Shown: in pieces, positions 22,385 to 64,000 of the stretch | Position numbering within the stretch: the stretch's first letter is position 1 | Layout: each line of letters opens with the position of its first letter | Assembly (NCBI GenBank): GCA_964016885.1 | Contig: OZ024746.1 | Span: 45,198,001-45,262,000, forward strand | Direction of reading: 5' to 3' | Source: Eledone cirrhosa | Taxonomy: Eukaryota | Length of the DNA stretch: 64,000 nucleotides | Translations under genes and position numbers: made by a program | The notes under the pieces: generated by a model | Told to the model about the DNA's origin: nothing | Databases searched by the model: none | What the model saw: the letters and a program-made list of their open reading frames with translations, nothing else

Positions 22385-22386
<2 letters not shown>

Positions 22387-25300
22387 TTTCTTTATTAACC
22401 ACAAGGGTTTACATAAAGTAGACATTAAAGACAGTACAGGACAATATAGGGCGGTACAAATGGGCATTTCTGCGTGTAAAAAAACAAGAAACAGAGGATC
22501 TAATAATAGAACAATCTAAAAATTCCCCAATAGGGGGTAGACTTCGGAGGGACATTGGTGGAGAAAGCCCATTAAAAAGCCACAGTGACCCTGACCACCA
22601 GGGCAAGTGCCCTCTCCCAGTTTTCCACCTTTAATTTACAGACACATACTCAGAGTAGGCCCATTCACTCGGGCCATTCTTGCCTCTCTCACCCATCTTT
22701 CAACAAAATGCTGGGAAGAGAGCATTTCCTTTATACCCTGATTTGCCTTTTCAAATGAAATTTGAAAAAGTTAATCAGGGCATCACCGAAGAGGTAAGTG
22801 CTCGTCTTCAGCCCTTTCAAACGTGTCCAACATACTATCTCCTTCGCCATGACAGATAAATACTGCCTGCCATTCCCGGCAATCCTCACGATGGACTCAG
22901 CTGATAGCTGGATCCGTCCTACACGTGACAGCAGGTGTTCGACATAAACCCACAAGTCAGCAATGCTCGGACACTGGACGAGTGCGTGCAAGACGGTTTC
23001 GTCGCCCTGTGCGCATCTCGGACATGCCCGGCTGACGGCAGCTCCATGTCTGTAGAGTTTATCCCGAACTGGCAAAGCTCCTAGGTAGAATTGCCAGGCC
23101 AGAGATTTCTGGAAGTTGTCCATAGGCCCCGGCCCGCAAATCCTTCCGAAGAGATTGGCTAGTTGATTTTCGTCGACGCCTAGAGTTTCTCCAAGTACGT
23201 CGTAGCACTTCCCCTCCACTAATCCTCTATAGAACGCCAAGGTAGAGTTTCCACCGATCACATTGCCCGATTGGTCGAGGTCTGTGAGGGCCTGAAGACA
23301 TTCCAGTCTCCAAGCGCTCACTCTCGGGCTTCGCTTGACTCAGGACTGCAGCTCCGTCAAGGAGACGAGCTGGGGAAAGACGTGTCTAGCAAACGGCGAC
23401 CACACCTGATCACTGTGGAGAAAGAAGTTGAGATGTCGTAGCCTGAGCGCGTGTTTATGCATCATCATCCACGGCATACCCAGCCCTCCACGTAGCGGGT
23501 GTTGACAGCAGATGGACCGCCTGACCATCGGAGCGCGTCCCGTCCACAAAAACCGAAAGAGCAAACGCTCCAGCGCAGTCAGGCGTGGTTTAGGACAAGG
23601 TACGACGGTCAGGCGGTAGTAGATGACGGACGCGATGTACGCGTTAGCCACCTCCGATCGACCTTTCAAGGATAGCTTCCTCTCCGCCCATTTCTGGGTG
23701 AGAGAAGCCACCCTGTTCGTCACCTCGTCCCAGTTTTTGTCCGTCTGGAGGTCTGGACCGAACCAGAACCCTAGCAATTTAACCGCTTCGTCCGTCCAGC
23801 GCCCGACAACGCTGTTGGACGGCATGGACCTGCCTCTCCAGGTGCCGAGCTGCAGGCCCCCTGACTTTTCCTGGTTGATCATTGCTCCTGTCACCACTTC
23901 GTATTCTCTTAGTGTAGTGTTGATCGCCTCGATGTGTTTGGCGTTCGACACCTCTACGGTGACATCGTCCGCATATGCTGACACGGATCTTCCGCATCCT
24001 AGTTCGCACGGGACCACCCTCAACGTCTCCAGTTTGTGGAGTAATGGCTCGAGAGTCAATATGTACAAGAGTGACGATAGGGGACATCCTTGGCGGACTG
24101 AACGCATGATGTTGAACGGTTCCGAAAGGTGACCGTTCACTCTCACCACGGAGCAGATGTCGCTGTGCATGGCAGCGATCCAGCCTCTGAAGACGGGCCC
24201 AAAGCCAGCCGCCCTCAGGACTGCCGCTAGGTAACGATGGTCGACCCTATCGAACGCATTCGACTGTTCTAAATTGATCAAGGACCCACCCGTGCCAGGT
24301 TCCCTAGCTACCCTCTCTACGATGTATCGCATGAGGTGGAGGTTGTCGTGGATGGATCTGTCGGGACCACCAACGACAAGCGCCAACCTCTTTCCTCCCA
24401 CCTTGGCCAAGATCTTGAACTCTATGTTTAGCAGAGTTATGGGCCTAAAATTATCTATGTTATCCCCTTTGTTCGGGTCCTTTCTCAGCTGCGCCACAAC
24501 TCCTCGGCTCACAGAGCTGGGAATTCTCCCGTTCTGTTGCCAGTTGCAGTAGACGTCCGCCAAAAGGCCTCCGAATAAGTCTGGCATCTGTACGTAAAGT
24601 TCATATGGCAAACCATCCAACCAAGCGATTTACCCCTTGTGCAGCCAGTCATTGCCTCCCTTAATTCAGCGGCTTTTATCGGCTTTTCGCAACACTCCGC
24701 CTCAATAGCCGAAAGCCGCGGCAGTCCGTCGAGGTAAACACTAAGGTCCATCCCTTGATCCGGCCCGTCGCTGCCCCCGAACAACTGTGTGAAGTGTCGC
24801 TGAAAAGCTTCACACATTTTCCCTGGATCGAGTAGCATGCGCCCGTCGTGGTCCACCAAAGATCGGATCGTGGCTTTGTTGCCACGACGCGCCTCGGCCA
24901 CTCAGGCCCAATGAACGGCTTTCCTCCCCTCGTGTCTGAGAGCACGCACCATAGCTCTGACAACGCAGCCTTCGTGCTTTGCATTGAAGAATTGTTCAAG
25001 GGCCAATTTCGCCGCAAGTACGTCGGTCGCGATGCCTTTGCTAAGCGCCTCGTTTAATTTTCTAACTAATTCTCCCTCTGCTCTATTTTTCTCTATTGAT
25101 AAAGACTTACTAAACCTAATGAACTCTATTCTGGTCTCGCCGATGGCCACTACATCTATGTTTAGTGACCTGAGGTCGTTGAGCAGGTGGCCCTGCTTCC
25201 ATGACGACCCCAAGCCACGCGCGTTTATGCTGCCTATTCTGAGTGAGGTCATGGAGTGGAAAAGATGTGAAAGACCAATTATCTTACTTCTCGTAGAGGA

Positions 25301-27429
25301 AGGATGGTTTGTCCATCCTTTTCACTGCTTGTGGCCTCCTCCGGAAAGATGTCCTTATAAATCCTCCTGGATAGTGTTTGTCGGAAGTCTCCGATGTCTT
25401 TGGGGAATTTTTGTTTTAGTATCGTGTACATTTTCTGTGTGATGCGAGTGATTTGTATGTGAACTTTTGGCTTGTTGTGTAGTCTTTTTTGTGATTCTGG
25501 TGTTGTGTTGGATGTAGTGTAATAATTGGTTGTTGTTCAAATTTAATTGTTTCTACTTTAGGCACAATGCTGTGTAGTGTGTAACGTTTTGGTTGTTTTG
25601 TTTTGTTTGCGTTTGTTGTGGGTTTGTTTCTGTTTCGCTTTCTGGTGACTTTTGTGGTGTAGGTGATGGTGGTTTTGGGGTTAATGATGGTGATGGTGTT
25701 GGTGTTTGTGGTGATGGGGTTGGTGATGCTGCTGTGGATGGTGGCATATCTGTCCTGACTTTTTTGTTTGATAGTTTATTTGTTTTCCTCTGTATTTTGT
25801 TTTTGGAGAGGAAGGAAGATAATTTTTTCTTTTTTGATTTCTTTTTTTCTTTTTTCCTGATACCATTTCCCACACCTCGTCGTCACAATCTGTCTCCAGT
25901 TGTGGCCAGGGAGTGGAAAATCCTCCACAGGCGTTGGTTTTGGTTGTGGCGTGGTGGATGGTGTCGGCGCTGGTGCTAGTTCTGGCGCGTTGGGTGGTGG
26001 TGGTGTTGGTTTTGCTACTGTTGCTGGGGTTGTTGCTGTTACAGTTGCTTCTGTTGTTGCTGCTACAGTTGTTGCTGCCATCTCTGATGCTGGTGGTGTT
26101 GATGGTTGAGTCACTGGGGTGGGTAAGAGAGGTGGCCTCAACCTTTTAGCCTGAGAGCAGAAAGGCCTTAGGTGGGTTCCTTCACAACAAACGACACACC
26201 TATGCCTTCTGCCATCGACGATTACGGTGAGGTGGCTGCCGTCAGTGAAGTCTATTACCTCTGGGATCTCCTCAATGCTTTTTTGGTCCGCTTGGATCAG
26301 GACTTCCATCCCAGATCCGGACCAGTTCTCCTGCTTTTCTTTCGCTATTTCGATTATCTTCGTGTTGGCTTCGATGCCGGCGAGGACGGCCGCTATTAGT
26401 CAGGGAATTTCGATGGCCGGTGGAACGTGGGTGACCCTGATCTTTACGAGTCTCTGGCCACAATAGCTTGGGACGAGTGTGAAGTCGTCACTTCTTAATG
26501 GGGCTATGGAGTGTTCTCTAGCCTCCTGTGGTGTTTCAAAGAACACGTCCACGGTTCCATATTTCTGCCCACGTCTGATGTTGCGTTTTTTTGCCCACAC
26601 ATGTCCCAAAGATTTTGGATTTGGGACTCGGATGCCCGTCCACTCGGCGCGATTTTATGTTAATTGTTCGATAAGCCACGGTGCATAGGCGCCGATGCTC
26701 TATTTTATTAGGTGTGGGGGGGGCTGACCCTGTACCCATCTTTCTTTACCATTTTTTTGGCTTCTTCTAATTCCTCCCGAGTTACCTGAAATGCTTCGCA
26801 CAGTTTTGCTACTCTGGCAAAATTGAGGGTGGTTTTCTTAATTTCATTGTTGCTGTTGTTGTTATCGTTATTTTTGCTATTGTTAATTTTAGTTTCAGTT
26901 GTGGTGGTGGTGGCGTCAGTGGTGTTCGGTGTGGAAGAGTTTATTTTGGTTGAATTCATTTCGATATCACGAGTTAATCTTTTTTCTTTTGTTACTGCTG
27001 TCGTGGTGGGGGGGGGGGGTTGTCGCGGTGGTGGTAGTGGTGGCGGCTTTAACACCTGCAGTCATTGGTAATTGCGGGAAATGAATGTCTGCTTGAGACA
27101 AATTTAAAATATTGCTACTGCTTATAATTTTTGTGTTGGCAAACGTAGTAATATTTACAATGGCGGTGTCGGTGTGAGGTGTTAGTTTGTGAGGAGGACT
27201 GACTCTGCGTCGTCCATGATTTTTCAAAGAAAAATGTTTGTTTGATAATTATAAAAGTTTAAATTTTGGACTCAAGGCCCCAATGTTTTTGGGTGTCCTT
27301 TTCAGATAACAATGTATGTGCACTTATATACAGTTAACAATAAAAATTTCCATAAATGCCATTTTAAACAACTGAAAATAACAAACCTTTGCGGAGCTCA
27401 CAATGATACGATTTACTACGTAGGTCGCC
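22385..27429 (-). mobile_element. Tx1/L1-clade non-LTR retrotransposon copy A (5' module type 1), degenerate, endonuclease deleted
   Basis: Frameshifted ORF1 and ORF2 pieces (RT with QGCPLS, YADD; CCHC). (AAT)n at both ends (22334-22384, 27430-27482). In-frame 744-bp APE deletion at 25128-25132. Confidence 0.95.
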
Positions 27430-27482
<53 letters not shown>

Positions 27483-27569
27483 GGGAAGAAAACGCACATG
27501 GTGGATATATATCGTTATGGAATCGCTCCCGTAAGTGTTTGATTTTTACTTATTTAAAACAACTGTGAG

Positions 27570-28070
27570 AGAATAATTCTTATTACAAATGAAATATAAG
27601 ATTACAGTTTTGACCCTCAGCAAGCGACAACGCATCACATTACGGCATAGGGCCCCAATATTTAATATTTAATTTTGGATCAGAAATGTTAAAGGCGAAA
27701 AAGAGAAACAAAGTGGACAGACAGGCAAATAATTTCACCACCAACACCACCACCGCCACCATCACCACTGCCACGCCAAAAACTCTTTTCAAGTTACCTC
27801 AACTTCAATTTCTACTTCAACTTCAACACCATCACTACAGTACTACGATCACATCACCACCACCACTGCCTCATTATCGCTACCGCCGCTATTCTCTCCC
27901 ACTACCTCCTGCTAAGTACTACTAGCACATCACCACCACCACCACTGCCTCATTATCGCTACCGCCGCTATTCCCTCCCACTACCTCCTGCTAAGACAGA
28001 CATCGTAGTATACCCACTAAATGAGGAAGGCATCAAAAGATATAAATAGACTGATTTGATGACCCGGTCA
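27570..28070 (+). repeat. Old duplicated segment homologous to ~57230-57890; includes ~70-bp tandem duplication (27850-27995) and a TATAAATA motif
   Basis: Shared colinear blocks: aattcttaNtacaaat, aatttcaccacca, CAC-rich tract, caaaagatataaatagaYtgaYtt...cccggYca. Confidence 0.65.
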
Positions 28071-28264
28071 AAAAATCAAAAAATCAAAAATCAAAATTAA
28101 AACACCACAGCAGCAACGAAAAACGAAAAGAAAAGAAAAAAGAAAAGAAAAACAAACAGAGAAACAGACTAAGTCAGACATTCAAACATTACATTACAAT
28201 GAAACTTATGCTTTTTTTTTGGGGGGGGGGGGGTTTACCTATTTGTTTGTTTGTTTATTTATGT

Positions 28265-31200
28265 TCGTCTACAGCGTGATGGTGCCACGCTAAAATCACC
28301 GAGGGTGATGAAATCACCGGTGTTATGTAACCATACATTCACCAATCCTCGATATGAGTGTTTCAATGTCGAACCTAAACAGTTCGAATAACGGTGAAGT
28401 GGAGAATGGAATGTCATGTGACAGACTCTCACCCAGCAGGTGCTCCCTGGCTCAGCAACAGGGACCTGGCTGTCAACCAAATACTGCTGGTGTCGGAGGA
28501 AGAAGAAGGATAGAGATCAGAACCAACTGGGTGCAATGTTTCCTGAAGAGTAACCCCAAGGAAAAAGGCTATAGGAAACGGATGCATAACATCTGGAACG
28601 AGATTGGTCTATTTAAATTAGATGAACAAAAATTGGCCGGGTAGGCTCGGGGTAATAAGAACTAATAGGTGGATAAGCGAGCTGGAACTGGAGGAACTTA
28701 GCAGAGAGATTAGGTTGGAAATGGAGAGTGGAGTATGCCAGGCAAACGAGCCAGTGGGAAATGAAGGTGAAGAGATTGAGAGAACGGAGGAACCATCCGA
28801 AGCAGACAATGATCTGAATGCTGAAATAAATAATACCTGGAACAAAGATACGACCATTGAGGAGATGAATGCTGACGGGCTAGGACCAGATTTGGTTGAT
28901 ATCCTAAACTTAGTGGCAGATGAAATGAATAATGATAGTGGGAAACCTATGAACCTAAGATTTGTAGACAGGAAAAAGTTAAAAGAAACAACAGCTAAGG
29001 TAAACAAAGTCATCCCATACCTTGAGGCGAGGAGCCTTCACCAGTGCAACAATATCCTCAAAGCAACAGCAAATGCGGCGAGGAAATTACTTGGCATAAA
29101 AGCGAGAGGAAACAACAAACAAGAAAGATCAGAACCTTAGTGGAAGAAACGACTGAATGGTCAAATCAGGGAAATGACAAATGACATTGGAAAGCTTGAG
29201 TCCCCACTAAAAAACATAGATACTAAAAATAGACTGGAAATAAAGTACAAAACTAGGAGGAAAAAGCTAAATATTATCATAGAGGAAGTGAAGCAACGGA
29301 TTGTAGCAAAGAATGCAAAAATTAGGCGATACGAGAGCAGAGTCAGTCAGTATAGACAGAACCGCATGTTTGACAACAACCAGAAGATGTTGTTTGGACA
29401 GCTTGAAGGGAAAGAAAGAGGCAACGACTTGATCCCTGAGGCGGAGCAAACTAAGACATTCTGGAGAGGAATCTGGGAGCAGGATGTTAAACATAATGAC
29501 CAGGCAGTGTGGATTGAGACAGTACAAAAGGAGATTAGTGAACAGGCGCACCAACAAACTGATTTGAGTATCACAGTTGAAACTCTTAAGGGGCAGGCCA
29601 AAAAACTAACCAACTGGAAATCACCATTAAAAATATAACATCGCTCCACCCGAAACTGACAACCATGTTCAATGACTGTTTGATGTCAGGTGAGGTACCA
29701 GAGTGGTTGACAAAAGGTACCACAGTTCTGGTAATGAAAGACCGAATCAAGGGTAATGATGTTACCAACTATAGACCTATCACATGTGTGTCCGTAATGT
29801 GGGAACTGTTGACAAGCATTGTGTCTGAGGAAATCTACCATCACCTCCACACAAACAACTTGTTACCGGACGAACAGAAAGGATGCCGAAAGAAGTCCCG
29901 TGGTACAAAGGACCAGTTACTTATTGATAAGATGGTAATGAGGAATTGAAAGAGGAGACACACTGGTCTTGCCATGGGATGGATAGACTACAAAAAGGCA
30001 TTTGACATGGTGCCTCATTCTTGGATCACCAAAAGCCTAGAGATCTTCAAGGTGGCAGATAACATCAGACAGTTGTTGAGCAAAAGTATGAAGTCCTGGA
30101 AAACAGAGTTAACATCAGCTGGAGAATCCTTGGGAGGCGTGAATATCAAGAGAGGTATCTTCCAGGGAGATAGTCTGTCCCCTCTGTTGTTTGTCCTTGC
30201 CCTGATGCCCCTGACCATTATACTGCGAAAAGTGAGAGCAGGATACAAGTGGGGAAAGGGAGAGCTTACCATCAATCACCTCCTCTTCATGGAGGATCTT
30301 AAGCTATTCGGGAAGAGTGAGAAGGAGTTGGGTGTGCTTGTTGACAATGTCCGTATTTTCAGCAATGATATATGTATGCAATTTGGTATTAGTAAGAGTC
30401 CTTGTGTTGAAGAGGGGTAAATTGAGCAGAGCAACGGAATCCAGGTACCAACAGGTGAGATGATAAAGGGAATTGACACTGAAGAAGGATACAAGTATTT
30501 GGGTATTCTGGAGGCTGATGACATCAAGAACAAAACAATGAAGGAATTGATAAGATCTGAATACATTCGGAGAGTAAAGAGCGTATTAAAGTCACATTTG
30601 AACTGTAGGAATGCCATAAGTGCAGTAAATTCCCGAGCTGTGTCTATTATTAGGTACAGTGCGGGAATTCTGAGATGGAATGTTGCTGAACAAAAAGAAA
30701 TGGATAGGAAGACTAGGAAGTTATTGACTATCTACAACATGTTCCACAAGAGGAGTGATGTCGATAGACTCTACTTAAGAAGATCTGAAGGGGTAAGAGG
30801 TTTATCAGCATAGAGGACTGTGTTCAGATGGAGAAAAACAACCTACACAAATACGTGACTTATAGTAAGGAGCCAATGCTCAGAACTGTACTGAAGGAGA
30901 GGACAATAGACCAGGGTATGTCCAAGGAGGAAATAACAACAAGGAGAAAGAGCAGCCTTCATGAAAAGACCCTTCATAGTACCTTCTTTGAGAAAACGGA
31001 ATTCAGGGATCCACAGACATGGAACTGGTTGAAATGAGGAGACCTTAAAAAGGCTACAGAAGGAATGCTAATGGCTGCGCAAGAGCAGGACCTCAAAACG
31101 AAGTGGTTGAAACACCATATTTACAAAGAGGAGGCTATCCCTCTGTGCAGGATCTGTGGAGAGAGAGAGGAGACTGTGGCTCACATTGTATCCGAGTGTA

Positions 31201-31757
31201 AACCCCTAGCCCAGATTCACTATGGGCAGGGTGATCCACTAGCACCAATTTACCACATTCTGAGAAGTGGTATGAGCATAAACCAGAGTCGGTGATAGAA
31301 AACGATCAGGTGAAGGTGCTGTGGGGTTTTAGGATACAGACGGACAAGAAACTGGAACACAATAGACCTGACCTGGTGGTTTTGGACAAGGAAAGAAGAT
31401 CGTGCCTGATTGTGGATGTGGCCAGCCCATTCGACACAAGAGTGCAAGAGAAGGAGAGGGAGAAAATTAACCGATACCAGGACTTAAAGTGGGAGGTAAA
31501 AAGGATTTGGAACTGCCATGAAGTCAAAGAGGTCCCGATTGTCATAGGCGTACTAGGTACTATCTCAAAAAGTTTCCAGGGATGGTTAAAGAAAATTGGC
31601 TCCTTCACGCTTTTTGAAAGGCTTCAAAAGGCATGCTTGCTGGGAACAGCAAGAACTCTCCGATACGTCCTGAATATCTGAGGCTGCAGGTAGTGGCTTA
31701 ATATTCATTTCATCAAACTTTACAGTTAACTAACATCAATGACTGAGACTCAAAGAA
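28265..31757 (+). mobile_element. R4/Dong-clade (RLE) non-LTR retrotransposon copy B, near full length, inactivated
   Basis: Single broken ORF 28354-31681: N-terminal Myb-like region, RT ([34 protein letters not shown]), CCHC CRICGEREETVAHIVSEC, and restriction-like endonuclease NRPDLV...VDVA...EKINRYQDL. (TAA)n tail at 31759-31806. Confidence 0.92.
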
Positions 31758-31758
31758 C

Positions 31759-31797
<39 letters not shown>

Positions 31798-32050
31798 TAT
31801 AATAATGTTTTCTTTATTAACCACAAGGGTTCACATAAAGTAGACATTAAGGACAGTACAGGACAATACAGGACGGTACAAATGGGCATTTCTGCGTGTA
31901 AAAAAAACAGAGGTTGAAATAAAATAACAAAGAAAAATTCCCCAATAGGGGGGAGACTTCCAAGGGACATTTGTGGAGAAAGCCCATTAAAAGACCACAG
32001 TGGCCCTGACCACCAAGGCAAGTGCCCTCTCCCAGTTTTCCACCTTTAAT

Positions 32051-35000
32051 TTACAGACACATACTCAGAGAAGGCCCATTCATTCGGGCCATACTTGCTT
32101 CTCTCACCCATCTTTCAACAAAATGCTGGGAAGAGAGCACTTCCCTCTCTACCCTGATTTTCCTTTTCAAATGAAATTTGAAAAAGTTAATCAGGGCATC
32201 ACCGAAGAGGTAAGTGCTCGTCTTCAGCCCTTTCAAACGTGTCCACCATACTATCTCTTTCGCCATGGCCACCAGACAGATAAAAACTGCCTGCCCTTCC
32301 AGGCTAAAGGAAGGGGGCGGGGCAATCCTCACGATGGACTCAGCTGATAGCCGGATCCGTCCTACACGTGACAGCAGGTGTTCGACATAAACCCACAAGT
32401 CAGCAATGATCGGACACTGGACGAGTGCGTGCAGGACGGTTTCGTCGCCCTGCGCGCATCTCGGACATGCCCGGCTGACAGCACCTCCATGCCTGTAGAG
32501 TTTATCCCGAACTGGCAAAGCTCCTCGGTAGCACTGCCAGGCCAGGGATTTCTGGAAGTTGTCCATAGGCCCCGGCCCGAAAGTCCTTCCGAAGAGACTG
32601 GCTAGTTGATTTTCGTCGACGCCTAGAGTTTCTCCAAGTACGTCGTCGCTCTTCCCCTCCACTAATCCCCTATAGAACGCCAAGGTGGAGTTTCCACCGA
32701 TCACATTGCCCGATTGGTCGAGGGCTGTGAGCGCCTGAAGACATTCCAGTCTCCAAGCGCTCCCTCTCGGTCTTCGCTTGACCCAGGACTGCAGCTCCGT
32801 CAAGGAGACGAGCTGAGGAAAAACGCGTCTTGCAAACGGCGACCACACCTGATCACCGTCGAGGAAGAGGTGGAGATGTCGTAGCCTGAGCGCGTGTCTG
32901 CGCATCATTAGCCACGGCATGCCCAGCCCTCCACGTAGCGGGTGTTGACAGCAGATGGACCGCCTGACCATCGGAGCGCGTCCCTTCCACAAGAAGCGAA
33001 AGAGCAAACGCTCCAGCGCAGTCAGGCGGGGCTTAGGACAAGGTACGACGGTCAGGCGGTAGTAGATGACGGATGCGATGTACGCATTCGCCACCTCCGC
33101 TCGACCTTTCAGGGATAGCTTCCTCTCGGCCCATTTCTGGGTGAGATAAGCCACCCTGCTCGTCACCTCGTCCCAGTTTTTGTCCGTCTGGAGGTCTGGA
33201 CCGAACCAGACCCCTAGCAATTTAACCGGTCCGTCCGTCCAGCGCCCGACGACGCTGTTGGACGGCATGGACCTGCCTCTCCAGGTGCCGAGCTGCAGGC
33301 CCACTGACTTTTCCTGGTTGATCATTGCTCCTGTCACCGCTTCGTATTCTCTTAGTGTAGTACCGATCGCCTCGATGTGTTTGGCGTTCGACACCACTAC
33401 GGTGACATCGTTGGCATATGCTGACACGGATCTTCCGCATCTTAGTTCGCGCGGGACCCCCCTCAACGTCTCCAGTTTGTGCAGTAATGGCTCGAGAGTC
33501 AATACGTACAATAGGGACGAGAGGGGACATCCTTGGCGGACCGAGCGCATGATGTTGAACGGTTCCGAAAGGTGACCGTTCACTCTCACTACAGAGCAGA
33601 TGTCGCTGTGCATGGCAGCGATCCAGCCTCTGAAGACGGGCCCAAAGCCAGCCGCCCTCAGGACTGCCGCTAGGTAACGATGGTCGACCCTATCGAAGGC
33701 TTTCGACTGATCTAAATTGATCAAAGACCCACCCGTGCCAGGTTCCCTAGCTACCCTCTCTACGATGTATCGCATGAGGTGGAGGTTGTCGTGGATGGAT
33801 CTGTCGGGAATGGCGCATGTCTGCGCCTCTCCCACCAGACCACCAACGACAAGCGCCAACCTCTTTGCTAGCACCTTGGCCAAAATCTTAAACTCTGTGT
33901 TTAGCAGAGTTATGGGCCTAAAATTATCTATGGTATCCCCCTTGTTCGGATCCTTTCTCAGCAGCGCCACCGCTCCTCGGCTCACAGAGCTGGGAATTCT
34001 CCCGTTCTGTTGCCAGTTGCAGTAGACGTCCGCCAAGAGGCCTCCGAACAAGTTTGGCATTTGTACGTAAAGTTCATAGGGGAGACCATCCAAACCAGGC
34101 GATTTACCCCTTGTGCAACTAGTCATTGCATCCCGTACTTCAGCGGTTGTTATCGGCTTTTCGCAACACTCCGCCTCAGTGGCCGAAAGCCGCGGCAGTC
34201 CGTCGAGGTAGACACTAAAGTCCATCCCTCTACCCGGCCCCCCGCTGCCCCCGAACAGCTGAGCGAAGTGTCGCTGAAAAGCTTCACACATTTGCCCGGG
34301 ATCGAGTAGCATGCGCCCGTCGTGGTCCACCAAAGACCGGATCGTGGCTTTGTTGCCACGACGCGCCTCCGCCACTCGGGCCCATTGAACGGCTTTCGTC
34401 CCCTCGTGTCTGAGAGCACGCACCCTAGCTCTGACAACGCAGCCTTCGTGCTTTGCATTGAAGAATTGGTCAAGAGCCAATTTCGCCGCAAGTACGTCGG
34501 TCGCGATGCCTTTGCTAAGCGCCTCATCTAATTTTCTAACTAATTCTCCCTCTACTCTATTTTTCTCTATTGCTAAAGTCTTACTAAACCTAATGGACTC
34601 TATTCTAATTGCTCTTTTCAGAGCAAACCACCACTTGTTGTTGACGATGCCCCCCGTCAACGCCCGCTTAACTAGTTCGCTAATCCGGTCTCTGTAGGCC
34701 TTGCGCGCTGGTAAGGACGCGTTTAGCTTCCAATAGCCGGGTCCTCGTCTATGAAGCCTATCTAAGTCAAGCACACAGATCACGAATTTGTGGTCCGTGT
34801 AGCTGACTATCTTGAATTGTGGACAGCCTATGCTAGACCTATCTATTTCCCTACAAAATACTCTATCTAGATATGATCTGGATGACCCTATGCGATTTGT
34901 CCAAGTCCACATTGGTACATTCGGGAAATCCATTCGGTACCTGTCAGACAGTTCAAAACGTCTGAGCAGGTTGGTGAGACTCTTGCACCCTCCTTCCCTA

Positions 35001-35470: not shown

Positions 35471-35504
35471 GTTGAAAAGGAGTGGAAAAGATGGGAAAGA
35501 CCAC

Positions 35505-37475: not shown

Positions 37476-37684
37476 TTTTTTTCAAAGAAATTTTTGGATA
37501 ATAATAAAAGTTAAAATTTTGGGCACAAGGCCCCAATCTTTTTGGGTGTCCTTTTCGGAAAACAATGTATGTGTGCTTATAAACAGTTTACAATAAAATT
37601 TTCCATAAATGGCAATTTTTAAACAAACGGAAATAACAAACCTTTGCGGAGCTCACGATAATACGATTTCCTACGTAGGTCGCC

Positions 37685-37729
<45 letters not shown>

Positions 37730-42914: not shown

Positions 42915-42949
<35 letters not shown>

Positions 42950-46602: not shown

Positions 46603-46637
46603 GTTTAAAATAGAGTGGAAAAGATGGGAAAGACCAC

Positions 46638-48734: not shown

Positions 48735-48973
48735 GTTGTTTTTTGTTTAAAATGAAATTTTGGGTACAAAACCCCAATAACTGGTTATTTAACCCCGAAG
48801 AGCCAAATAACGGACAGAAAGACCCCTCTCACGAGGAGGAGGGTGTCTTTATCAACAATTTGGTTCAAGTTTTAAACAATTTACAATTGTTTTAACGGTT
48901 AAAAATTACTATACCTTACAGAGCCGAGCCTCCGTCAACCATGGCATTCAATAATAATAATAATAATAATAAT

Positions 48974-51900: not shown

Positions 51901-54713
51901 TCTTGAATTGTGGACAGCCTATGCTAGACCTATCTATTTCCCTACAAAATACTCTATCTAGATATGATCTGGATGACCATATGCGATTTGTCCAAGTCCA
52001 CATTGGCACATTCGGGAAATCCAATCGGTACCTGTCAGACAGTTTAAAACGCCTGAGCAGTTTGGTGAGACTCTTGCACCCTCCTCCCCTATCCGCTAAT
52101 CCCACACAATCCCAGCGTGCATCTAAGATCCCGTTCCAGTCGCCCACTAACACTAAAGAGCGGGACGTTCCAAGAAAGGTCTCCAGACGCCGGAAGAAAT
52201 CAGGCCGCCCTGCTCCTGTCGGGGCATAGACGGCCACTAACCTGAAAGCTTGGCCGTCTCCGCTGGTCACGTCCAGCACCACCAACTTACCTTCTGGGTC
52301 CAGGAAGATGGCCCGTATGGCGAGATCCAAACCTCTCCGAAAAAGCACAGCAACTCCTCTCAACGATCCCGGACGGCTGGGAGATGCGTGCACATCGTAG
52401 CCGCTGAAGATCGGTGCGAAGGCCCGTGCTTCGGAGATTCTGGTCTCGCTGATGGCCACTACATCTATGTTTAGTGACCTGAACTGGTTGAGCAAGTGGC
52501 CCTGTTTCCATGACGACCCCAAGCCACGCGCATTTATGCTGCCTATTCTGAGTGAGGTCATGTTGAAATGGAGTGGAAAAGATGGGAAAGACCACTTACC
52601 TTACTTCTCGCAGAGGTAGGACGTTTTCTCCATCCTTTTAACTGCTCGTGGCCTGCTCAGGAAGGATGTTCTTATAAATCCTCATGGAGAGTGCTTGTCG
52701 GAAGTCTCCGATGTCTTTGGGGAATTTTTGTTTTAGTGTCATGTACGTTTTCTGTGTGATGCGAGTGATTTGTATGTGTGGAGGTGGTGTGAAATTATGG
52801 GTTGTTGTGTAGTCTTTTTCTGTGATGCTGGTGTTGTGTTGGATGTAGTGTAATAATTGGTTGTTGTTCAAATTTAATGCTGTGTAGTGTGTATCGTTTT
52901 GGATATTTTGTTTTGTTTGCGTTTGTTGTGGTTTTGTTTCTGTTTCGCTTTTTGGTGACTTTTGTGGTGTAGGTGATGGTGGTGTTGGGGTTAATTATCG
53001 TGATGGTGTTGGTGTTTGGGGTGATGGGGTTGGTGATCCTGGTGTGGATGGTGGCATATCTGTCCTAACTTTTTTGTTTGATAGTTTATTTGTTTCCCTC
53101 TGTATGTTGTTTTTGGAGGGTGAAGGAAGAGAATTTTTTTCATTTTTGGTTTCTTTTTTTCTTTTTTCCTGATACCGTTTCCCACACCTCTTCGTCACAA
53201 TCTGTCTCCAGTTGTGGCCAGGGAGTGGAAAATCCTCCACAGGCGTTGGTTTTGGTTGTGGTGTGGGGGATGGTGTAGGCGCTGGTGCTAGTTCTGGCGC
53301 GTCGGGTGGTGGTGGTGTTGGTTTTGCTACTGTTGCTGGGGTTGTTGCTGTTACAGTTGCTTCTGTTGTTGCTGCTACAGTTGTTGCTGCCATCTCTGAT
53401 GCTGGTGGTGTTGATGGTTGAGTCACTGGGGTGGGTCAGAGAGGTGTGGCCTCAACCTTTTAGCCTGAGGGCAAAAAGCCCTTAGGTGGGTTCCTTCACC
53501 ACAAACGACACACCTAGGCCTTCTGCCCTCGACAATTACGGTGAGGTGGCTGTCGTCAGTGAGGTCTATTACCTCTGGTATCTCCTCAATGCTTTTTTGG
53601 TCCGCTTGGATCAGGAGCTCCATCCCAGATCCGGACCAGTTCCCCTGCTTTTCTTTCGCTATTTCGATTATCTTGGTGTTGGCCTCGATGCCGGCGAGGA
53701 CGGCAGCTATTAGCCAGGGAATCTCGATGGCCGGTGGAACGTGGGTGACCCTGATCTTTACGAGTGTCTGGTCACAATAGCTTGGGACGAGTGTGAAGTC
53801 GTCACTTCTTAATGGGGTCATGGAGTGTTCTCTAGAATCCTGTGGTGTTTCAAAGAACACGTCCACAGTTCCATACTTCTGCCCACGTCTGATGTGGGTT
53901 TTTTTTGCCCACACATGTCCCAAAGCTTTTTGTATTTGGGACTCGGATGCCTGTTCCACTCGGCGCGATTTTATATTAATTGTTCGATAAGACATGGTGC
54001 ATAGGCGCCGACGCTCCATTTTATTAGGCTGACCCTGTACCCATCTTTCTTTACCATTTTTTTGGCTTCTTCTAATTCCTCCTGAGTTACCTGAAATGCC
54101 TCGCACTGTTTTGCTACTCTGGCAAAACTCAGGGTGGTTTTCTTAATGTCATTGTTTCTGTTGTTGTTATCCTTGTTTTTGTTATAATTAATTTTAGTTT
54201 CAGTTGTGGTGGTGGTGGCGTCAGTGGTGTTCGGTGTGGAAGAGTTCATTTATGTTGAATTCATTTCGATATCACGAGTTAATTTATTTTTTCTTTTGTT
54301 TCTGTTGTCGCTGTGGTGGTGGTGTTGGTGGCGGCTTTATCACCTGCAGTCATTGGTAATGGCGGGAAATGAACTTCTGCCTGAGACAAATATTGCTACT
54401 GCTTACATTTCCAGTGTTGGCAAACGTAGCAATATTTACAACGGTGGTGTCGGTGTGAGGGGTTAGATTGTGAGGAAGGAGTGACTCTGAGTCATCCATG
54501 ATTTTTCAAAGACAAATTTTTGTTTGATAATTATAAAAAGTTTAAATTTTGTGCTCAAGGCCCCAATATTTTTGAGTGTCCTTTTCAGAAATCAATGTAT
54601 GTGCACTTATATAGTTAACAATAAAAATTTTCCATAAATGGCAATTTTAAACAACTGAAAATAACAAACCTTTTCCGGAGCTCACGATGATACGATTTAC
54701 TATGTAGGTCGAC
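48974..54713 (-). mobile_element. Tx1 copy F (5' module type 1), full length but multiply frameshifted; AATAAA signal deleted
   Basis: Fragmented ORF1/ORF2. (AAT)n 54714-54756 at the 5' end. 3' end reads gatttcacaagg instead of gatttctttattaaccacaagg. Confidence 0.95.
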
Positions 54714-54756
<43 letters not shown>

Positions 54757-55000: not shown

Positions 55001-55189
55001 TACAATATATACATATATATATATATATATGTAAATTATAATCAATGTGGTATGTTAACTTGCTTACCAATGTACACAGTGAATTCATTTGCCCTAGGTG
55101 TCAGGAGGACACTCGGCATATATCAGAAACAATACTGAAGGAAAAGGGAAAACAATAAAAAAAATAATGATAATAATTCGAAGAAAAAG

Positions 55190-55967: not shown

Positions 55968-56880
55968 TGTTTCATATGTCACAAGAACACATTTGAACAG
56001 CAAAGGCACGTTTCAAAACACAAGTAGTAAAAGCAAAAAATGAAACAATGCTTATAATAAAACATAAAAATTAAATGTTCTCAATAATGCGGACAGTTGT
56101 TTATAACTAATCAAAGAAATTCCTGAAACTTGGTTCAATTTGACCACCAATGGCATGTGCCATCTTGCAGCTGTCATCCTCCAACCAACAGGTGAATGCT
56201 CAAGGTAGTCCCATTCACTCCGGCTATACACGAACTTTCACGAACCTTTCAAAATATTTGCTGGAGAGTAGCACACTCGCTTCTGCCCTTTTTCTTCCTT
56301 TCGAACTGATTCTTGAAAATATTGATAGAAGCTTGAGAGAAAGGAAATGTGTGTCCCGTTTGCCTTTTTAATCGCATCCAACACACATCTTCGCCATAGC
56401 AAGCAGACAGAGGTTAACTGCTGTCTTTGTGGTGAAAAAAGGCAGACGAGACTAGCCTCATAAATTCGGTCGATAGCTGTTCAATAAACGCTACAGATCA
56501 TCAAGCTTCAGACGCTAAAACACGTGCGTGCAGAACGGTTCCGAAAGGTAGTTATTTATCCTGACCACCGAGCTGATGTTACAATGCATTGAAGCCTAGC
56601 CTGAGTTGGAGGTTGTCATGAATAGATTTGATCGGGACGGCATTACTCAAAGCTCTCAGCACCACTACCACGTCTGTCACACTGAACTTGGAATTCTGTT
56701 TCTGTTGACAGTTTCAAAAGAAGTCTTCCAAGACAACCACACTCCACAACTTTGCACTCCAAGCTTATCCCTACCCTTTCTTATAAAACTTTCCCTCCTT
56801 TTTAACACGCGAAAAAAATAAAGATAAAGTGTACCTTTCTGCAAAGCTCTAGCCTCTATAAAATGTCTCTAGCATCTAGA
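55968..56880 (-). pseudogene. Old divergent Tx1 3' fragment adjacent to a decayed (AAT)n
   Basis: cccattcactccggc, ttcgccatagc and cgtgcgtgcagaacggtt are colinear with the ORF2 3' end of copies A-G. AAT tract at 55950-55967. Confidence 0.65.
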
Positions 56881-56883
56881 ACT

Positions 56884-56989
56884 GTCTCGGGTTCAATCGG
56901 GGGTAACCAAAATAATATATTAAACTTGATATATATGTATGTGTCTATGTATATATAAGTATATACATATGGTCATACATATGTGTATG

Positions 56990-57023
<34 letters not shown>

Positions 57024-57073
57024 TATATCAAGTTTAATATATTATTTTGGTTACCCCCGATTGAACCCGGGAC
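56884..57073. mobile_element. Small foldback/MITE-like inverted repeat (~60-bp arms, (TA)-rich centre)
   Basis: gtctcgggttcaatcgggggtaaccaaaataatatattaaacttg... is mirrored at 57013-57073. Confidence 0.7.
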
Positions 57074-58072
57074 TCACATATTCATACATACATACATACA
57101 AAATCTAATCGTTTTTTTAATATATTTTCATATGGACTCTACTCTACTATTTTAATATATTTTCATATGGACTCTACCGTCTTTTGTATATTCTATTGTT
57201 AATATTATTGATATTGCTATTACTATCTGGATAACAATTCTTAGTACAAATAATACATAAAGCACCAGAAAATTCAGATCCATAATATCCTGTTATATCG
57301 CTCAAATATTCAATTTTGTATTATAAATGTTATATTCAAAAAAGAAAATGGTTATAAATGGAAGAAAAAACCCTCTCTGTCTACACTATATAGAACAGCC
57401 AAATAACAGCAATTTCACCAACACCAGAAACTAGATACACCACCTATCCCATCACCCCTCTGTGTACACTAAATACAATAGCCAGATAACGGTAAATTTC
57501 ACCACCACCACCACCAATCGCAGCATAATAATAATAATTACTATTATTATTGTCTCAAGTTTTCACAAAATGTTTAATTCCAATATTAAGAAAATATGTC
57601 AACACATATATTAAACATACGCGACAAACCGCAATGATACACAGATCAAACAAACTACAGTCTATTCAACAAAACTCAGTAACGACAACGCCATCGCTAT
57701 AGTCACCGCCGCCACCACCTCATCTATCATTGCTACCACTATCCCATCACCGCCGCCACCACTCCTTCATTGCTACCACCACTATTCCCCCATTACCTTC
57801 TGTTAACTTAAGAAAGGGGAAGGTGGCGGTATCACTAGACAAGGGAGAGGCTAGCAAAAGATATAAATAGATTGACTTAGTTTCCCGGCCACCGGCCAAA
57901 CGTCAACGACTATGGCACTGCTGGCTCCCCCTTCACCCACCAACAATAGAAAAAGCCCCAACACCACCACCGACATAGCCAACAACAATAACAGGCAACC
58001 TCAGCACGCAATGCTCACATTAAGGAACCACTCATGATAATAACAATTTAAAAAAAACAACAAAAAAGAAAA

Positions 58073-61058
58073 CCCCGTGACCAAGAAATACCGGGATGGC
58101 GACCAGCGAGGAATAGCCGTGTCTCTAGGGGAGGACGACCCCTCTAGTCTTGGTTGACACTCGTCCTAGAAGTGGTAACACGAAATGATTACCCCTTGGC
58201 GGATAAGGATAAAACGCAACAAAATAAAGTAAATGTCAAATGATAAAATCTCATACCGGATCGGCCGTCACCCGGGTCAAAAAGGGCCGCGTCCCTCAGA
58301 GAGGAACCAGACTGGGGTCGAAAAATCAGCTAATGGTTCAAACCTTCCCATCACTTTGGAGCTGGAGACCTCCCATAACCGGAATACTCCTACTGTTGGC
58401 CCTCCATGCTCACCACCAAGAAATCAAAAGAAAAAGAGAGAAAAATGGTCAAGGGAAGATAATAAAGAAGTCCTTGAGGCTTTCTACACTGCCATGTACT
58501 ACCCATCAAATACATCGAATAAAGAACAGACATATATCAACTGGAAAAAGAAACATCCCGAAAACAGAGGCTATATTGACAGTAACAAACTAGCCAATAT
58601 ACGAAGAAATATTGTAAAAAAAAGTTACTAACTGATATAGAAATTGATCAGATCAAGCTATTAGCACAAAGTCAGCGAAGGGAAAATGAAACATGTGTCA
58701 GTGAAAACGAGGTAAATTGTAACACTTCAAATCCCAGGGTTGGGGCGGAATCACTGACAACAGAACAAATTAAAGAAAGTATCGAAAAAGTGGAGGGAGT
58801 GCATGCTCAAGATGAAACTCAAAATGAAAACAATGAGATCGTAAATGATAAAGAAATGAATGAGAATGGACTTGACAACTTGAAGGATGAAATTATGATC
58901 GAATGGATGAAAATGAAAGAATCTGACATGGGGGAACGAGACACCCTCCCTAAGATCCAGAACTCCAAACAGAACCAAAAGATAATACACAAGACGAACA
59001 TAATTCTCAAAAACATTATCATCACAAACAAACTAAACATTACTGATTTAAATCATCTCTATTATGCATCGGCTAAAGTCACCACTCACTTATGTGGAGT
59101 GAAAATGAAAAAACAAAGGAATTCCCACAAGAAATCTACTTGGCAAGAGAACATCAATCGCCAAATAAACCGATCTGACATAGAAATGTTAACAAACTAT
59201 AAAGTAGCTGAACATGCTAAACAAACTAAACTTAGAAAATTGAAAAGAAAGTACAGTATAAAATCAACAAGTGACATAGACATGCTGATAGAAATAATCA
59301 AGCAAAAAGTGTCGGCCAAAGCTGCTCGTATAAGGCGCTTTGAAAAACGATCTAGATTCTATAAGGACAATAATATGTTCAAAAACAACCAAAGAAACTT
59401 CTACAGAAAAATTGGTAAGTCAACAATAACTGCTAAATCAATACCACCCAAGGAGGAAGTGCAAGAATTCTGGGAAAAGATCTGGGCCGAAGAAAAAGTT
59501 CATAACATACATGTCCCATGGATAGACAGACAAATGAAAGATACAGCTCACCTTGAGAAACAAATATGGGAAAATATAACAGATGAACAGTTGCGTTTGG
59601 TTCTTAGAAAAACCAGCAAATGGAAATCCCCAGGAACAGACAAAATACAAAATTTTTGGATAAATGCCTTCGCAGAGTCTCATGAGCTGCTAGACCAACT
59701 TTACAGTGGAATAATTAAGGAGCCAGAAAAGATACCATCATGGCTAGTTAACGGCATTAAATTCCAGCTTCCGACGAATGATGAGACAAACAATCCCAAA
59801 AATTACAGACCGATAACTTGCTTGACCACAATGTATAAAATGTTAACATCAGTCCTAACTGAATATACATATGACCACCTGATAACAAATGACCTATTTC
59901 CCATTGAGCAGAAAGGGTGTAAACGAGGCTCATATGGCTGTAAGGATCAGCTTTTGGTTAACAAAAGGATACTGGAAGATTGTCATAATAGACACAAAAA
60001 TCTATCAATTGCTTGGATAGATTATGAAAAAAGCATTAGATAGTTTGCCACACAGTTGGATTGAAAAATGTTTAGAGATTTTCAAAATATCTCCCGTTGT
60101 CTGTCAGGAGGTTTTTGTCATTCAGTATGAAGACATGGAAAATGACACTCCTTTTGAATAGTGAAACAAAATCACTGGAAGCGTGCTAACAATCCTGATG
60201 TTGACAAAACTTTAACCCATCAGTGGTTGGCATCCTCTGGACTGAAATCGGAGGCTAAAGGACTGATTATATCAGCACAAGATCAGTGTCTGCCAACAAA
60301 AAATTACCAACCCAACATAATAAAAAATGGATGCAGCCCATTATGCCGTGTATGTAAAAAAAAACAACCAGAGACCATTGACCATATAATTTCAATGTGC
60401 AGTCCTATAGCTCCAACCGAATACCCAAACAGGCATGACAGAGCTGCACAATACATACATTGGATAATGTGTAAGCATTTTGACCTGCCCCATCATAAGA
60501 ATTGGTGGGAGCATCAACCACCTCCCATACTTGAAAAAGATCACATCTCAATCTTGTGGAACTTTAGCATCCAAACAGACCGAAAAATAGATGCAAATAG
60601 ACATGATATAATACTGAAGGACTTTAAAAAGAAGGTATGCCTGCTAATTGATACGTCCCTTCCAATAGACAAGAATGTATCTATAAAAACATTTGAAAAA
60701 TTGAGCAAGTATAAGGACCTGGAGATAGAAATTGGAAAAATGTGGAAATTGAGAACTAAAACAATGCCAGTGGTTGTAGACGCTCTAGGAATGATACCTA
60801 AGGGGTCTAATGATTACTTATCGCAAATCCCAGGAAACCCGCGTATAGGATAAATACAAAAGATAGTACTAATGGAAACTGCCCATATACTAAGGAAGAT
60901 TCTGTCAATATAAGTACATCACAAGTCTAAACACCTAAAGATGCATGTGTGAGTATATATGTTCTTTCTTGAACATGGTGGACCTTGTTGTCTCTTGAGG
61001 TCACTGGTTGTGACTTGGTCGATAACTCGTATGAACATAAAGCAAGATAAATGCAGCT

Positions 61059-61060
<2 letters not shown>
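58073..61060 (+). mobile_element. R4/Dong-clade copy H (second, divergent family); RT core internally deleted near 60165
   Basis: KWSREDN Myb-like N-terminus, [22 protein letters not shown], then a jump to CRVC...HIISMC, RHD, and RLE motif NRHDII...LID...KYKDLEIE. (TAA)n tail 61060-61089. Confidence 0.9.
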
Positions 61061-61088
<28 letters not shown>

Positions 61089-61090
<2 letters not shown>

Positions 61091-62648
61091 CAACTATAGA
61101 CCTATCACATGTCTGTCCGTAATGTGGAAACTGTTGACAAGCATTGTGTCTGAGGAAATCTACCATCACCTCCACACAAACAACTTGTTACCGGATGAAC
61201 AGAAAGGATGCCGAAAGAAGTCCCGTGGTACAAAGGACCAGATACTTATAGATAAGATGGTAATGAGGAATTGCAAGAGGAGACACACTGGTCTTGCCAT
61301 GGGATGGATAGACTACAAAAAGGCATTTGACATAGTGCCTCATTCTTGGTTCACCAAAGGCCTAGAGATCTTCAAGGTGGCAGATAACATCAGACAGTTG
61401 TTGGGCAAAAGTATGAAGTCCTGGAAAACAGAGTTAACATCAGCTGGAGAATCCTTGGGAGACGTGTAGATCAAGAGAGGTATCTTCCAGGGAGATAGTC
61501 TGTCTCCTCTGTTGTTTGTCCTTGCCCTGATGCCCCTGACCATTATACTGCGAAACGTGAGAGCAGGATACAAGTTGGGAAAGGGAGAGCTTACCATCAA
61601 TCACCTCCTCTTCATGGACGATCTTAAGCTCTTCGGGAAGAGTGAGAAGGAGTTGGATGTGCGTGTTGACACTTCGTATTTTCAACAATGATATATGTAT
61701 GTAATTTGGTATTAGTAAGTGCGGGGTCCTTGTGATGTAGAGGGGTAAATTGAGCAGAAGCAACGGAATCCAGGTACCAACAGGTGAGATGATAAAGGAA
61801 ATTGAAAAGAGCAGCCTTCATGAAAAATCCCTTCATAGTACCTTCTTTGAGAGAACTGAATTCAGAGATCCACAGAAATCGAACTGGTTGAAAAGAGGAG
61901 ACCTTAAAAAGGCTACAGAAGGAATGTTAATGGCTGCGCAAGAGCAGGTCCTCAAAACGAAGTGCTTGAAACACCATATTTACAAGGAGGAGGCTAGCCA
62001 ATGTGCAGGATCTGTGGAGAGAGAGAGAGGAAACTTTGGCTCCCATTGTATCCGAGTGTAAACACCTAGCCCAGACTCACTATAAGGGCTGGAGACATGA
62101 TGTCATGGGCAGGGTGATCCACTGGCACCTATGCAAAGTAAACAATTTACCACATTCTGAGAAGTGGTATGAGCATAAGCCAGAGTCGGTGTTAGAAAAC
62201 GATCAGGTGAAGCTGCTGTGGGGTTTCAGGATACAGACGGACAAGGGAACACAATAGACCTGACCTGGTGGTTTTGGACAAGGAAAAAAGATCGTGCCTG
62301 ATTGTGGATGTCGCCTTCCCATTCGACACGAGAGTGCAAGAGAAGGAGAGGGAGAAAATTAACCGATACCAGGACTTAAAGTGGGAGGTAAAAAGGATTT
62401 TGAACTGCCATGAAGTCAAAGTGGTCCCGATTGTCATAGGCGCACTAGGTACTATCTCAAAAAGTTTCCAGGTATGGTTAAAGAAATTGGCCCCGCCACG
62501 CTTTTTGGAACGCTTGAAAAGGCATGCTTGCTGGGAACAGCAAGAACCCTCCGATACGTCCTGAATATCTGAGGTTGCAGGTAGTGGCTTGATATTCATT
62601 TCAACAAACTTTCCAGTTAACTAACATCAATGACTGAGACTCAAAGAG
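61089..62648 (+). mobile_element. 5'-truncated Dong copy I (same family as B) inserted in the (TAA)n tail of H
   Basis: Starts at accaactatagacc (= B 29764). Retains FMDD and RHD. Internal ~470-bp deletion at ~61805. Same 3' end as B. Confidence 0.92.
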
Positions 62649-62676
62649 TAATAACAACAATAATAATAATAATAAT

Positions 62677-64000
62677 GATTTCTTTATTGGCCACAAGGGC
62701 TGGTACACAAGGGCCACAAGGGCTGGTACACAAGGGCCACAGGACGGTACGATGTGGATTTTGTGCGTGTAAATATTTTTATTATTTATATAAGAAAAGA
62801 AAAAAAAAGGACACAGAAACATATATATATATATATATATATATAAACAATAAAAATGAAAATTGAAACAATGAAAAATTCCCCAATAGGGGAGAAACCT
62901 CCGAGGGTTACTCGTGGCGAAAACCACACAAAAGACCACGGCCACCCTGCCCACCAGGGCAAGAAGCCTCTCTCAATTTTTCCATCTCTCAAACTACAGA
63001 CGTATATTCAGAGTGGTCCCGTTCACTCGGAGCATTCTCGCTACATTCACCCACCTTTCACCAAACTTGCTAGAAGGCAGAAAAAGATAATTAGGAATTC
63101 GCCGAAGAGGGAAGTGTCTGTCTTTAACCCTTTTAACCTTGTCCACCACACAATCTCTTTCGCCATGGCAACCAGGCAGATGAAAACCGCCTGCCCTTCC
63201 TCCTCGAAGGAAGACGGCGAGACCATCTGCACAATGGACTCAGTCGACAACCGGATCAGTCCCACACGCGACAGCAACTGTTCGACATAGCTCCACAAGT
63301 CAGCCATGCTCGGGCACTGAACGAGTGCGTGCACGACGGTTTCGTCGCTCTGCGTGCATCTCGGACAGGCTCGGCTGACGGCACTTCCGTGCCTGTAGAG
63401 CTTATCTCGAACCGGCAGCGCTCTCCGGTAGCACTGCCAGGCCAGGGATTTTTGGACGTTATCCATAGGCCCCGGGCTGAAAGTTCTCCGGAAGAGAGAA
63501 AACAGCTGATCTTCTTCGACGCCCAGGATCTCTCCGAGAATGTCGTCGCTCTTCCCATCCAATAGTCCTCTATAGAACGCCGAGGTGGATGTTCCACCGT
63601 TACTGGTGCCCAGCTGGCAGAGGGCAGTGAGCGCCTGGAGACATTCCAGTTTCCAAGCGCTATGCCTCGATCTTTTTCTGACCAAGGGCTGCAGCTCGGT
63701 CAAGGAGACGAGCTGTGGGAAAACGTGCCTGGCGAACGACGACCACACCTGTTTACCATCAAGGAAGTACCAGAGATGTCGCAGCCTCAGCGCATGTTTG
63801 CGCATCATCAGCCATGGCATGCCTAGTCCTCCACGCAACGGGTGTTGACAGCAGATGGATCGTCTGACCATGGGAGCGCGTCCCTTCTACAAAAAGCGGA
63901 AGAGGAGGCACTCCATTTTGGTGAGAGTTGGACTGGAGCAAGGGACGACGGTGAGGCTGTAGCAGATGACGGATGCGATGTACGCATTCGCCACCTCCGC
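62677..64000 (-). mobile_element. Tx1 copy G (more divergent subfamily), 3' part; continues beyond the window; inserted in the tail of Dong copy I
   Basis: ORF 63047-63871 is homologous to the ORF2 C-terminus. 3' end AATAAAGAAATC(ATT)n. 23-bp tandem duplication at 62691-62740. Confidence 0.93.

Follow-up and report, generated by a model that had tools for sequence, protein, structure and literature searches.

A putative Tx1-clade retrotransposon family lodged in (AAT)n microsatellites of Eledone cirrhosa

Elements and repeats of the window

The stretch analysed here comprises 64,000 nucleotides of the octopod Eledone cirrhosa (assembly GCA_964016885.1, contig OZ024746.1, positions 45,198,001 to 45,262,000 of the forward strand) and is referred to in its entirety as the window. 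It contains six copies of a retrotransposon family associated with (AAT)n microsatellites, the full-length members of which adjoin the repeat in one phase throughout the genome. The family represents a ~6-kb long interspersed element (LINE) with two open reading frames (ORFs), the second of which has the layout of apurinic/apyrimidinic-type endonuclease (APE), reverse transcriptase (RT) and zinc finger. The copies, designated A, C, D, E, F and G, were located by self-comparison and translation. All six lie on the minus strand, as had been claimed in the original prediction, a reading made from the letters of the window alone. Genome-wide the strand split of family copies is even (2,873 versus 2,778), and the term "minus strand" is therefore fixed relative to the repeat only. 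The family and its surroundings are arranged as follows, by position in the window and strand.

22333-22384, unstranded: (AAT)17 array bordering the 3' end of copy A and contiguous with ACT/AAC/ACC repeats
22385-27429, minus: copy A; GGCGACC head, ~0.78-kb internal deletion, ORFs broken
27430-27480, unstranded: (AAT)17 adjoined by both the head of copy A and Dong-like element 1 (5' end)
27481-31758, plus: Dong/R4-like element 1, running antiparallel to the family; broken, with RT, zinc finger and motifs of a restriction-like endonuclease
31759-31806, unstranded: (AAT)n at the tail-to-tail junction of copy C (3' end) with Dong-like element 1
31807-37684, minus: copy C; full length, GGCGACC head, ORF2 open, ORF1 frameshifted
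37685-37726, unstranded: (AAT)14 at the head of copy C
40384-42914, minus: copy D; GAATGCC head, large internal deletion; 3' end followed by one ATT, then (AGT)n
42915-42947, unstranded: (AAT)11 spacer between copies D and E
42948-48949, minus: copy E; full length, GAATGCC head, ORF1 open, ORF2 frameshifted
48950-48973, unstranded: (AAT)8 spacer between copies E and F
48974-54713, minus: copy F; full length, GTCGACC head, ORFs broken, AATAAA deleted
54714-54755, unstranded: (AAT)14 at the head of copy F
55968-56740 (upper bound approximate), minus: old L1/Tx1-like remnant, the fossil; 66-70% DNA identity to pieces of the family ORF2
57551-61059 (start approximate), plus: Dong/R4-like element 2, of a second family; CCHC-type finger, RHD and D..KY motifs; terminates in (TAA)10
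61090-62658, plus: Dong-like element 3, of family 1; 5'-truncated, stacked behind the tail of element 2
62659-62676, unstranded: (AAT)6 separating copy G, at its 3' end, from the Dong-like tail
62677-64000, continuing ~1 kb beyond the window, minus: copy G; divergent subfamily, ~77-82% identical to C/E, internally deleted, GTGGTTGG head

The family ends with an AATAAA signal six bases before its last base. A single 3' consensus had been proposed for all copies, and it is shared by A, D, E and G, which end in AATAAAGAAATC, and by F apart from the lost AATAAA; it does not extend to copy C, which ends in AATAAAGAAAAC and finishes AAAAC. In every copy the element is followed by ATT repeats without poly(A), as described earlier, copy D having a single ATT. 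The earlier description of the opposite end was likewise accurate, in that the five visible 5' ends all follow ...ATT in one phase and copies D, E and F stand head-to-tail with only short (AAT)n between them.

Junctions, subfamilies and class of the family

The 3.0-Gb assembly was searched by exact pattern counts. The expectation of AAT-specific insertion in a single phase was upheld genome-wide, in that the great majority of 5' flanks carry the repeat: GGCGACC heads stand directly after ATTATT in 2,462 of 2,584 cases and GAATGC heads in 2,540 of 2,607, giving 5,002 of 5,191 (96%) in phase for both types pooled, against a chance level of ~0.1% (ATTATT at 786 of 800,000 positions). The GGCGACC heads with a neighbour other than T all lie in ATT arrays (14/14), 13 with a point change in the last unit and one with a phase shift, and the two inspected among the remaining 108 misses are both arrays with a point change. 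An A directly precedes this head in 6 of 2,584 cases, where random phase would give one in three. The third head type, that of the G subfamily (326 exact matches), has an upstream array in 30 of 30 sampled copies when judged by eye and in 29 by regular expression, and at least five ATT units lie upstream in 28 of 30 positional heads. Since all three head types, including that of the ~80%-identical G subfamily, follow ATT, the target is common across subfamilies.

At the other end, at least 11,401 family 3' ends were counted, a lower bound for the family from a pattern that covers the C/E subfamilies. Two ATT units come next in 8,921 of them and four in 7,168, and one ATT followed by a base other than A in 262. 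Sixteen of 17 inspected ends that failed the two-unit pattern were real, six with an array past a variant junction and ten with short or changed ATT.

Copies with little repeat at the 3' end are informative for the question of what was present before insertion. Twelve full-length copies in which the 3' ATT is single or interrupted (10 and 2, from two samples) all have 4-23 units upstream; L415, one of 17 loci in the sample that gave ten, was not counted. Non-repeat flank is duplicated in none of the 12, the window copy D behaving likewise, nor in any of 14 copies of a separate full-length set. Several of these copies read (ATT)n-element-ATT(CTT)m, as would result if the final unit of a compound repeat were nicked. 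Among 28 5'-truncated copies, 12 adjoin ATT repeats with differing breakpoints (one marginal); excluded before this count were four pattern matches without family body, two insertion-interrupted copies, one near-full copy and copies leaving the fetched stretch. Strict phase is a property of full-length copies; the joins of truncated copies involve microhomology and are in some cases out of phase, or else fall on a single ATT. Exact 15-bp duplications starting at ATT flank two of 12 short truncated copies. One truncated copy with a 15-bp duplication (L347; G000:C1:24835050-24842550) occupies a single ATT within the ORF1, rich in AAC, of a family copy that points the other way.

Young and older members are both present. 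The closest full-length pair is 99.7% identical, the first 160 bases of copy C are exactly matched in at least 40 copies, and of 34 full-length copies (32 positional and two chosen as G-type) nine have an open ORF2 with YADD and four have both ORFs open. Past the end of ORF1 (breakpoint 35552/46686) the sequences of copies C and E are 95% alike, whereas head and ORF1 differ, which indicates that 5' modules, comprising 5'UTR and ORF1, were swapped while the target was kept. Copies D, E and F are mutually 85-93% alike with different heads, as expected of a stack built by successive insertion; identical C-type heads are placed after several different subfamily tails. A fourth subfamily tail (…GCCAATAAATGAAATC) lies upstream of L132, L135 and L182, and a further recurring head follows (ATT)n in the downstream flanks of L099, L186 and L239.

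An old target preference had been proposed from copy G together with the fossil at 55968. The part concerning G stands: its 5' end, ~1 kb outside the window, comes after (ATT)6, and G-type copies, ~80% identical to C/E, have the same target, which supports some age for the preference as judged from these sequences. The fossil is weak evidence of age, as only its 3' end adjoins a short degenerate ATT run. Its identification as a tail of a short interspersed element (SINE) was rejected because it matches the family ORF2.

The ORF2 of copy C (1139 aa, 32051-35470) contains the Pfam domains Exo_endo_phos, RVT_1 and zf-RVT, with YAND in place of YADD in the RT. Its nearest solved relative is human L1 ORF2p (E 7e-52), and the APE catalytic positions are conserved in the sequence alignment; a single-sequence structure model of the APE domain (pLDDT, the predicted local distance difference test, 41) was too poor for use. 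By this domain layout the family belongs to the L1 group (L1/Tx1). The ORF1 of copy E (698 aa) has a visible CX2CX4HX4C knuckle and a core near CCHC and ZCCHC3-like RNA-binding clusters (Atlas 0.90-0.93, a lead-level match), and a Pfam search of ORF1 returned neither RRM nor Transposase_22. Tx1 elements are described as having an ORF1 of RRM/CCHC type, unlike Transposase_22 (PMC5203782), and the ORF1 of this family agrees with that type. Kojima's threshold for target preference, >20% of flanks (PMC4494074), is exceeded by the in-phase share of the pooled heads. Membership of the Tx1 clade is thus likely, as judged by the arrangement of domains and the specificity for a target.

No named Tx1 or L1 reference appeared among the matches of the homolog searches. 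The closest named proteins are those of Argonauta hians (73-75% in the RT), which form one clade with copy C in the RT tree (support 0.999; 35 sequences, FastTree, midpoint root, no named Tx1 included). A large sister clade in ENA contigs (P0441-P0500), at ~50% RT identity, groups with a cuttlefish sequence (P0405). A relative in Patella caerulea, ~30% identical, has at least 11 near-consecutive locus tags on one chromosome (P0141, P0302-P0311), a run that suggests a tandem array at a specific target.

Retroelements sharing the repeat

Three plus-strand LINE pieces of the window carry a C..C/H..C finger and RHD, PD or HD, and K..KY motifs, which we take to be those of a restriction-like endonuclease. 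They are best read as Dong/R4 elements; an assignment to RTE was dropped, as C-terminal restriction-like motifs are present. They represent two Dong/R4-like families, elements 1 and 3 belonging to the first and element 2 to the second, and 5'-truncated Dong-like copies too end on (AAT)n and stack inside their own tails.

Elements 1 and 3 have (AAT)n on both sides. Across the genome the 3' end of element 1 recurs in 10,133 exact copies (Dong-like family 1), and all of 30 sampled Dong-like tails enter AAT repeats, 10 of them being directly adjoined by a 3' end of the APE family. Dong-like neighbours of the family are without exception antiparallel (39/39), at its 3' side (28/28) as at its 5' side (11/11). 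The remaining neighbours of 87 positional 3' ends, none of which has a parallel Dong-like piece, are parallel family copies (20), SINE copies (12 parallel, one antiparallel) and other sequence (26). Beside the 30 heads that yielded the 11 Dong-like neighbours stand eight parallel family copies (plus two of a subfamily missing from the library), one SINE, one low-complexity antiparallel match and nine others. In a third of family copies the array is shared by a Dong-like end, the polarity being fixed.

That AAT is a retrotransposon target is already known through Dong: Dong (R4 clade; Bombyx, Anopheles and the snail Biomphalaria) and Rex6 are reported as TAA-repeat specific (PMC3812793, PMC1635306). 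The Dong endonuclease is described as restriction-like (PMC1635306), and a list in PMC3812793 places Dong among the APE types. The present family uses the same repeat as Dong, and Dong-like elements occupy the same arrays in window and genome; the Dong sense strand reads (AAT)n, whereas that of the family reads (ATT)n, and a restriction-like endonuclease stands against an APE.

A SINE of 187-216 bp also ends in ATT. It was drawn from L113, L095 and 82 matches in L241-L280, has no match in the window, and is represented by more than 126,000 exact tails of one variant; its head is presumably tRNA-derived. In 47 copies from 400 kb of evenly spaced pieces, flanking matches of at least 10 bp were present in 26, mostly beginning ATTA (shuffled control: mean 5.0, maximum 9), and the duplications span 10-19 bp, ~15 bp being typical, and start at ATT. 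The last 24 bases of G align ungapped with two SINE copies, one of them picked for its likeness, at 18/24 (p 2e-6) and 16/24 (p 9e-5), and SINE neighbours of the family are co-oriented in 12 of 13. A duplication starting at ATT is common to the SINE and to the two truncated family copies, and implies a first-strand nick immediately behind AAT of the opposite strand, at what in a pure array is a T|A step. From this shared insertion signature we infer that SINE and LINE are linked. A further repeat, ending ...CACTGTACACAATAATTTC and then (ATT)n, was seen in eight of 30 sampled arrays (L283, L286, L290, L292, L293, L297, L304 and L310) and is rarely a target of the family (2/30 heads).

Probable route of insertion and related systems

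The L1/Tx1-type LINE probably reaches (AAT)n arrays by target-primed reverse transcription after an APE nick at T|A of the AAT strand. The APE would nick the AAT-reading strand at AAT|AAT to give a primer ending ...AAT-3'. The transcript would run past its AATAAA signal into a few AUU units, so that the primer pairs beside the last base of the element and poly(A) is not copied. For a full-length copy, closure of the 5' junction would take place within the array behind ATT, through either a second T|A cut made in the ATT strand or the pairing of upstream repeat that had been co-transcribed. Each insertion would leave array on both sides, with the consequence that later copies stack head-to-tail. 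Dong-like elements would use the same arrays from the opposite strand, and the SINE may borrow the proteins of the family, or of an older relative, at short ATT motifs.

A rival account is distinct from this one in the division of labour between enzyme and pairing alone. It holds that the enzyme is a relaxed, L1-like T|purine nicker and that specificity stems from (AUU)n RNA that pairs with the primer and, at the 5' junction, from pairing of upstream repeat, in which case only long arrays would let a 6-kb copy finish. The SINE and the two truncated copies at one- or two-unit ATT with ~15-bp duplications fit such an enzyme, as does the lack of any non-repeat duplication in both sets of full-length copies. 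The APE also aligns with human L1 gap-free in the hairpin-loop region, where the loop of the sequence-specific Tx1L is longer (loop-graft chain of 240 versus 238 residues). However, arrays hold most 3' ends, also those of truncated copies, despite the far greater abundance of short ATT motifs (786 versus 54 positions in 800 kb), and for Tx1L itself sequence-specific nicking is reported. The relaxed nicker is the less likely of the two accounts. Far less probable is that the element makes its own arrays, with ATT repeats at both RNA ends, ordinary insertion sites, and flanks that expand by slippage. Twelve of 13 (ATT)n runs in 400 kb do touch a retroelement end when judged by eye, and the SINE and the further element have ATT tails, so that tails seed arrays in this genome. 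Yet 12 of 28 truncated copies, which lack the RNA 5' end, still adjoin ATT, full-length copies with one 3' ATT have no duplicated flank outside their upstream array, and random landing would not give the fixed polarity towards Dong-like ends in shared arrays. Taken together, the truncated copies at ATT, the upstream arrays of copies with a single 3' ATT and the Dong-like polarity favour a target that predates insertion, and the family very probably inserts into already existing arrays. As a substitute for empty sites, SINE duplications interrupted by a family copy were sought; none of seven cases was informative, most lying in larger stacks, and related-loci scans for the flanks in other species gave no matches.

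Passive pile-up, whether by random insertion followed by selection or by tandem duplication of one locus, is scarcely credible and is effectively refuted by the junction counts. It would accommodate the regional clustering of copies and the head-to-tail stacks above equal-use expectation; the base-exact phase of the pooled heads is beyond what selection would yield, and the divergence and differing heads of the stacked D, E and F and the C-type heads behind various tails are at odds with duplication. Insertion by nicking in existing arrays is itself opposed by several observations. ATT is missing from the 5' junction in 16 of the 28 truncated copies (six adjoin an antiparallel Dong-like piece, one is cut by a SINE and nine are unexplained), and that sample was chosen by a 3' pattern requiring three ATT units. 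No array stands on either side of the near-full copy L414, which is 115 bp short, and the truncated junctions of L032 and L207 appear out of phase. The commonest SINE tail has only 8-10 of 24 ungapped identities, and four ATT units lie upstream of only four of the 47 SINE copies, which are mostly outside long arrays; if the same enzyme moves the SINE, a short motif must suffice. Lastly, head-to-tail stacking exceeds the expectation from equal use of the ~122,700 arrays: the genome has 122,745 perfect ATT runs of at least five units, equal use of which predicts a family copy upstream of ~6-9% of heads, and such copies were found at 9-10 of 30 and 14 of 30 in two samples. Array-length weighting accounts for only part of this excess (weight share 24/102 in one array class).

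A bolder reading is offered tentatively. The APE LINE and the unrelated Dong may have converged on one microsatellite from opposite strands, feeding each other targets, and the same LINE lineage may drive the dominant SINE at minimal ATT motifs, with full-length copies needing long arrays for a repeat-paired 5' junction. If this is true, ATT replaces poly(A) throughout an L1-like mechanism, and two tiers of stringency arise from one enzyme.

Human L1 and Alu rely on poly(A) priming. The present family would follow the same logic through a T|A nick, pairing of primer with RNA tail and a duplication beginning with the sequence of that tail; it differs from human L1 in having an ATT repeat for poly(A), an ORF1 of RNA-binding/CCHC type and a near-exclusive target. 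The human L1 nick is given as 5'-TTTT/AA (PMC1950540).

Microsatellite specificity is recorded for Kibi at (TC)n, Koshi at (TTC)n and the crocodilian Tx1-1_Crp group at (TTCC)n/(TTTC)n (PMC4494074, PMC3812793), likewise APE-type LINEs specifically inside a microsatellite. The present family likely works like Kibi and Koshi and adds AAT to the known habit of microsatellite-targeting Tx1 elements. It departs from them in target, in having an octopod rather than a vertebrate host, in its at least 11,400 copies and in three interchangeable 5' modules, and it is not a Kibi or Koshi by target, since (CTT)n occurs only as a neighbour in compound repeats. Tx1-Mar targets the Mariner element and has a SINEU partner in crocodilians, with 13-90% preference by SINE family (PMC4494074). 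It resembles the present case as a target-preferring Tx1 with a SINE that likely uses its machinery at looser preference and with tandem copies around a regenerated target, and differs in that the target here is a microsatellite and the SINE has ~15-bp duplications starting at ATT. Octopus vulgaris has 80 L1-Tx1 families, 13 of them recently active, and recently active Dong-R4 (PMC13282606); the L1-Tx1 families there share class label and host group with the present family as compared by description only, and no target analysis of them was found in the text or supplement of that source as searched. An AAT-specific Tx1 was not found in the literature searched, and a catalogued consensus may exist in Repbase, Dfam or the supplement of PMC4494074.

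Microsatellite choice by APE-type retrotransposons is described as poorly understood (PMC3812793). Because its junctions number in the thousands and it has heads of three types, young copies and a likely SINE partner with legible duplications, what the endonuclease contributes can be told apart from the part of RNA pairing in this family, which adds a target to the Tx1 catalogue and places two endonuclease classes on one target in opposite polarity. It may also explain a sizeable part of the octopod genome (roughly 5% of the 400 kb sampled matches it), and AAT loci are insertion hot spots in this genome, which is relevant to their use as markers.

Positions 1-22300 of the window lack family copies and any (AAT)n of at least three units; they are AT-rich with many (AT)n, (AC)n and other microsatellites and short local duplications (2661-3083/3324-3746; 15903-17075). 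In the region of the fossil, an inverted repeat of ~190 bp (88%) surrounds an (AT)n run at 56880-57075 and is possibly a miniature inverted-repeat transposable element.

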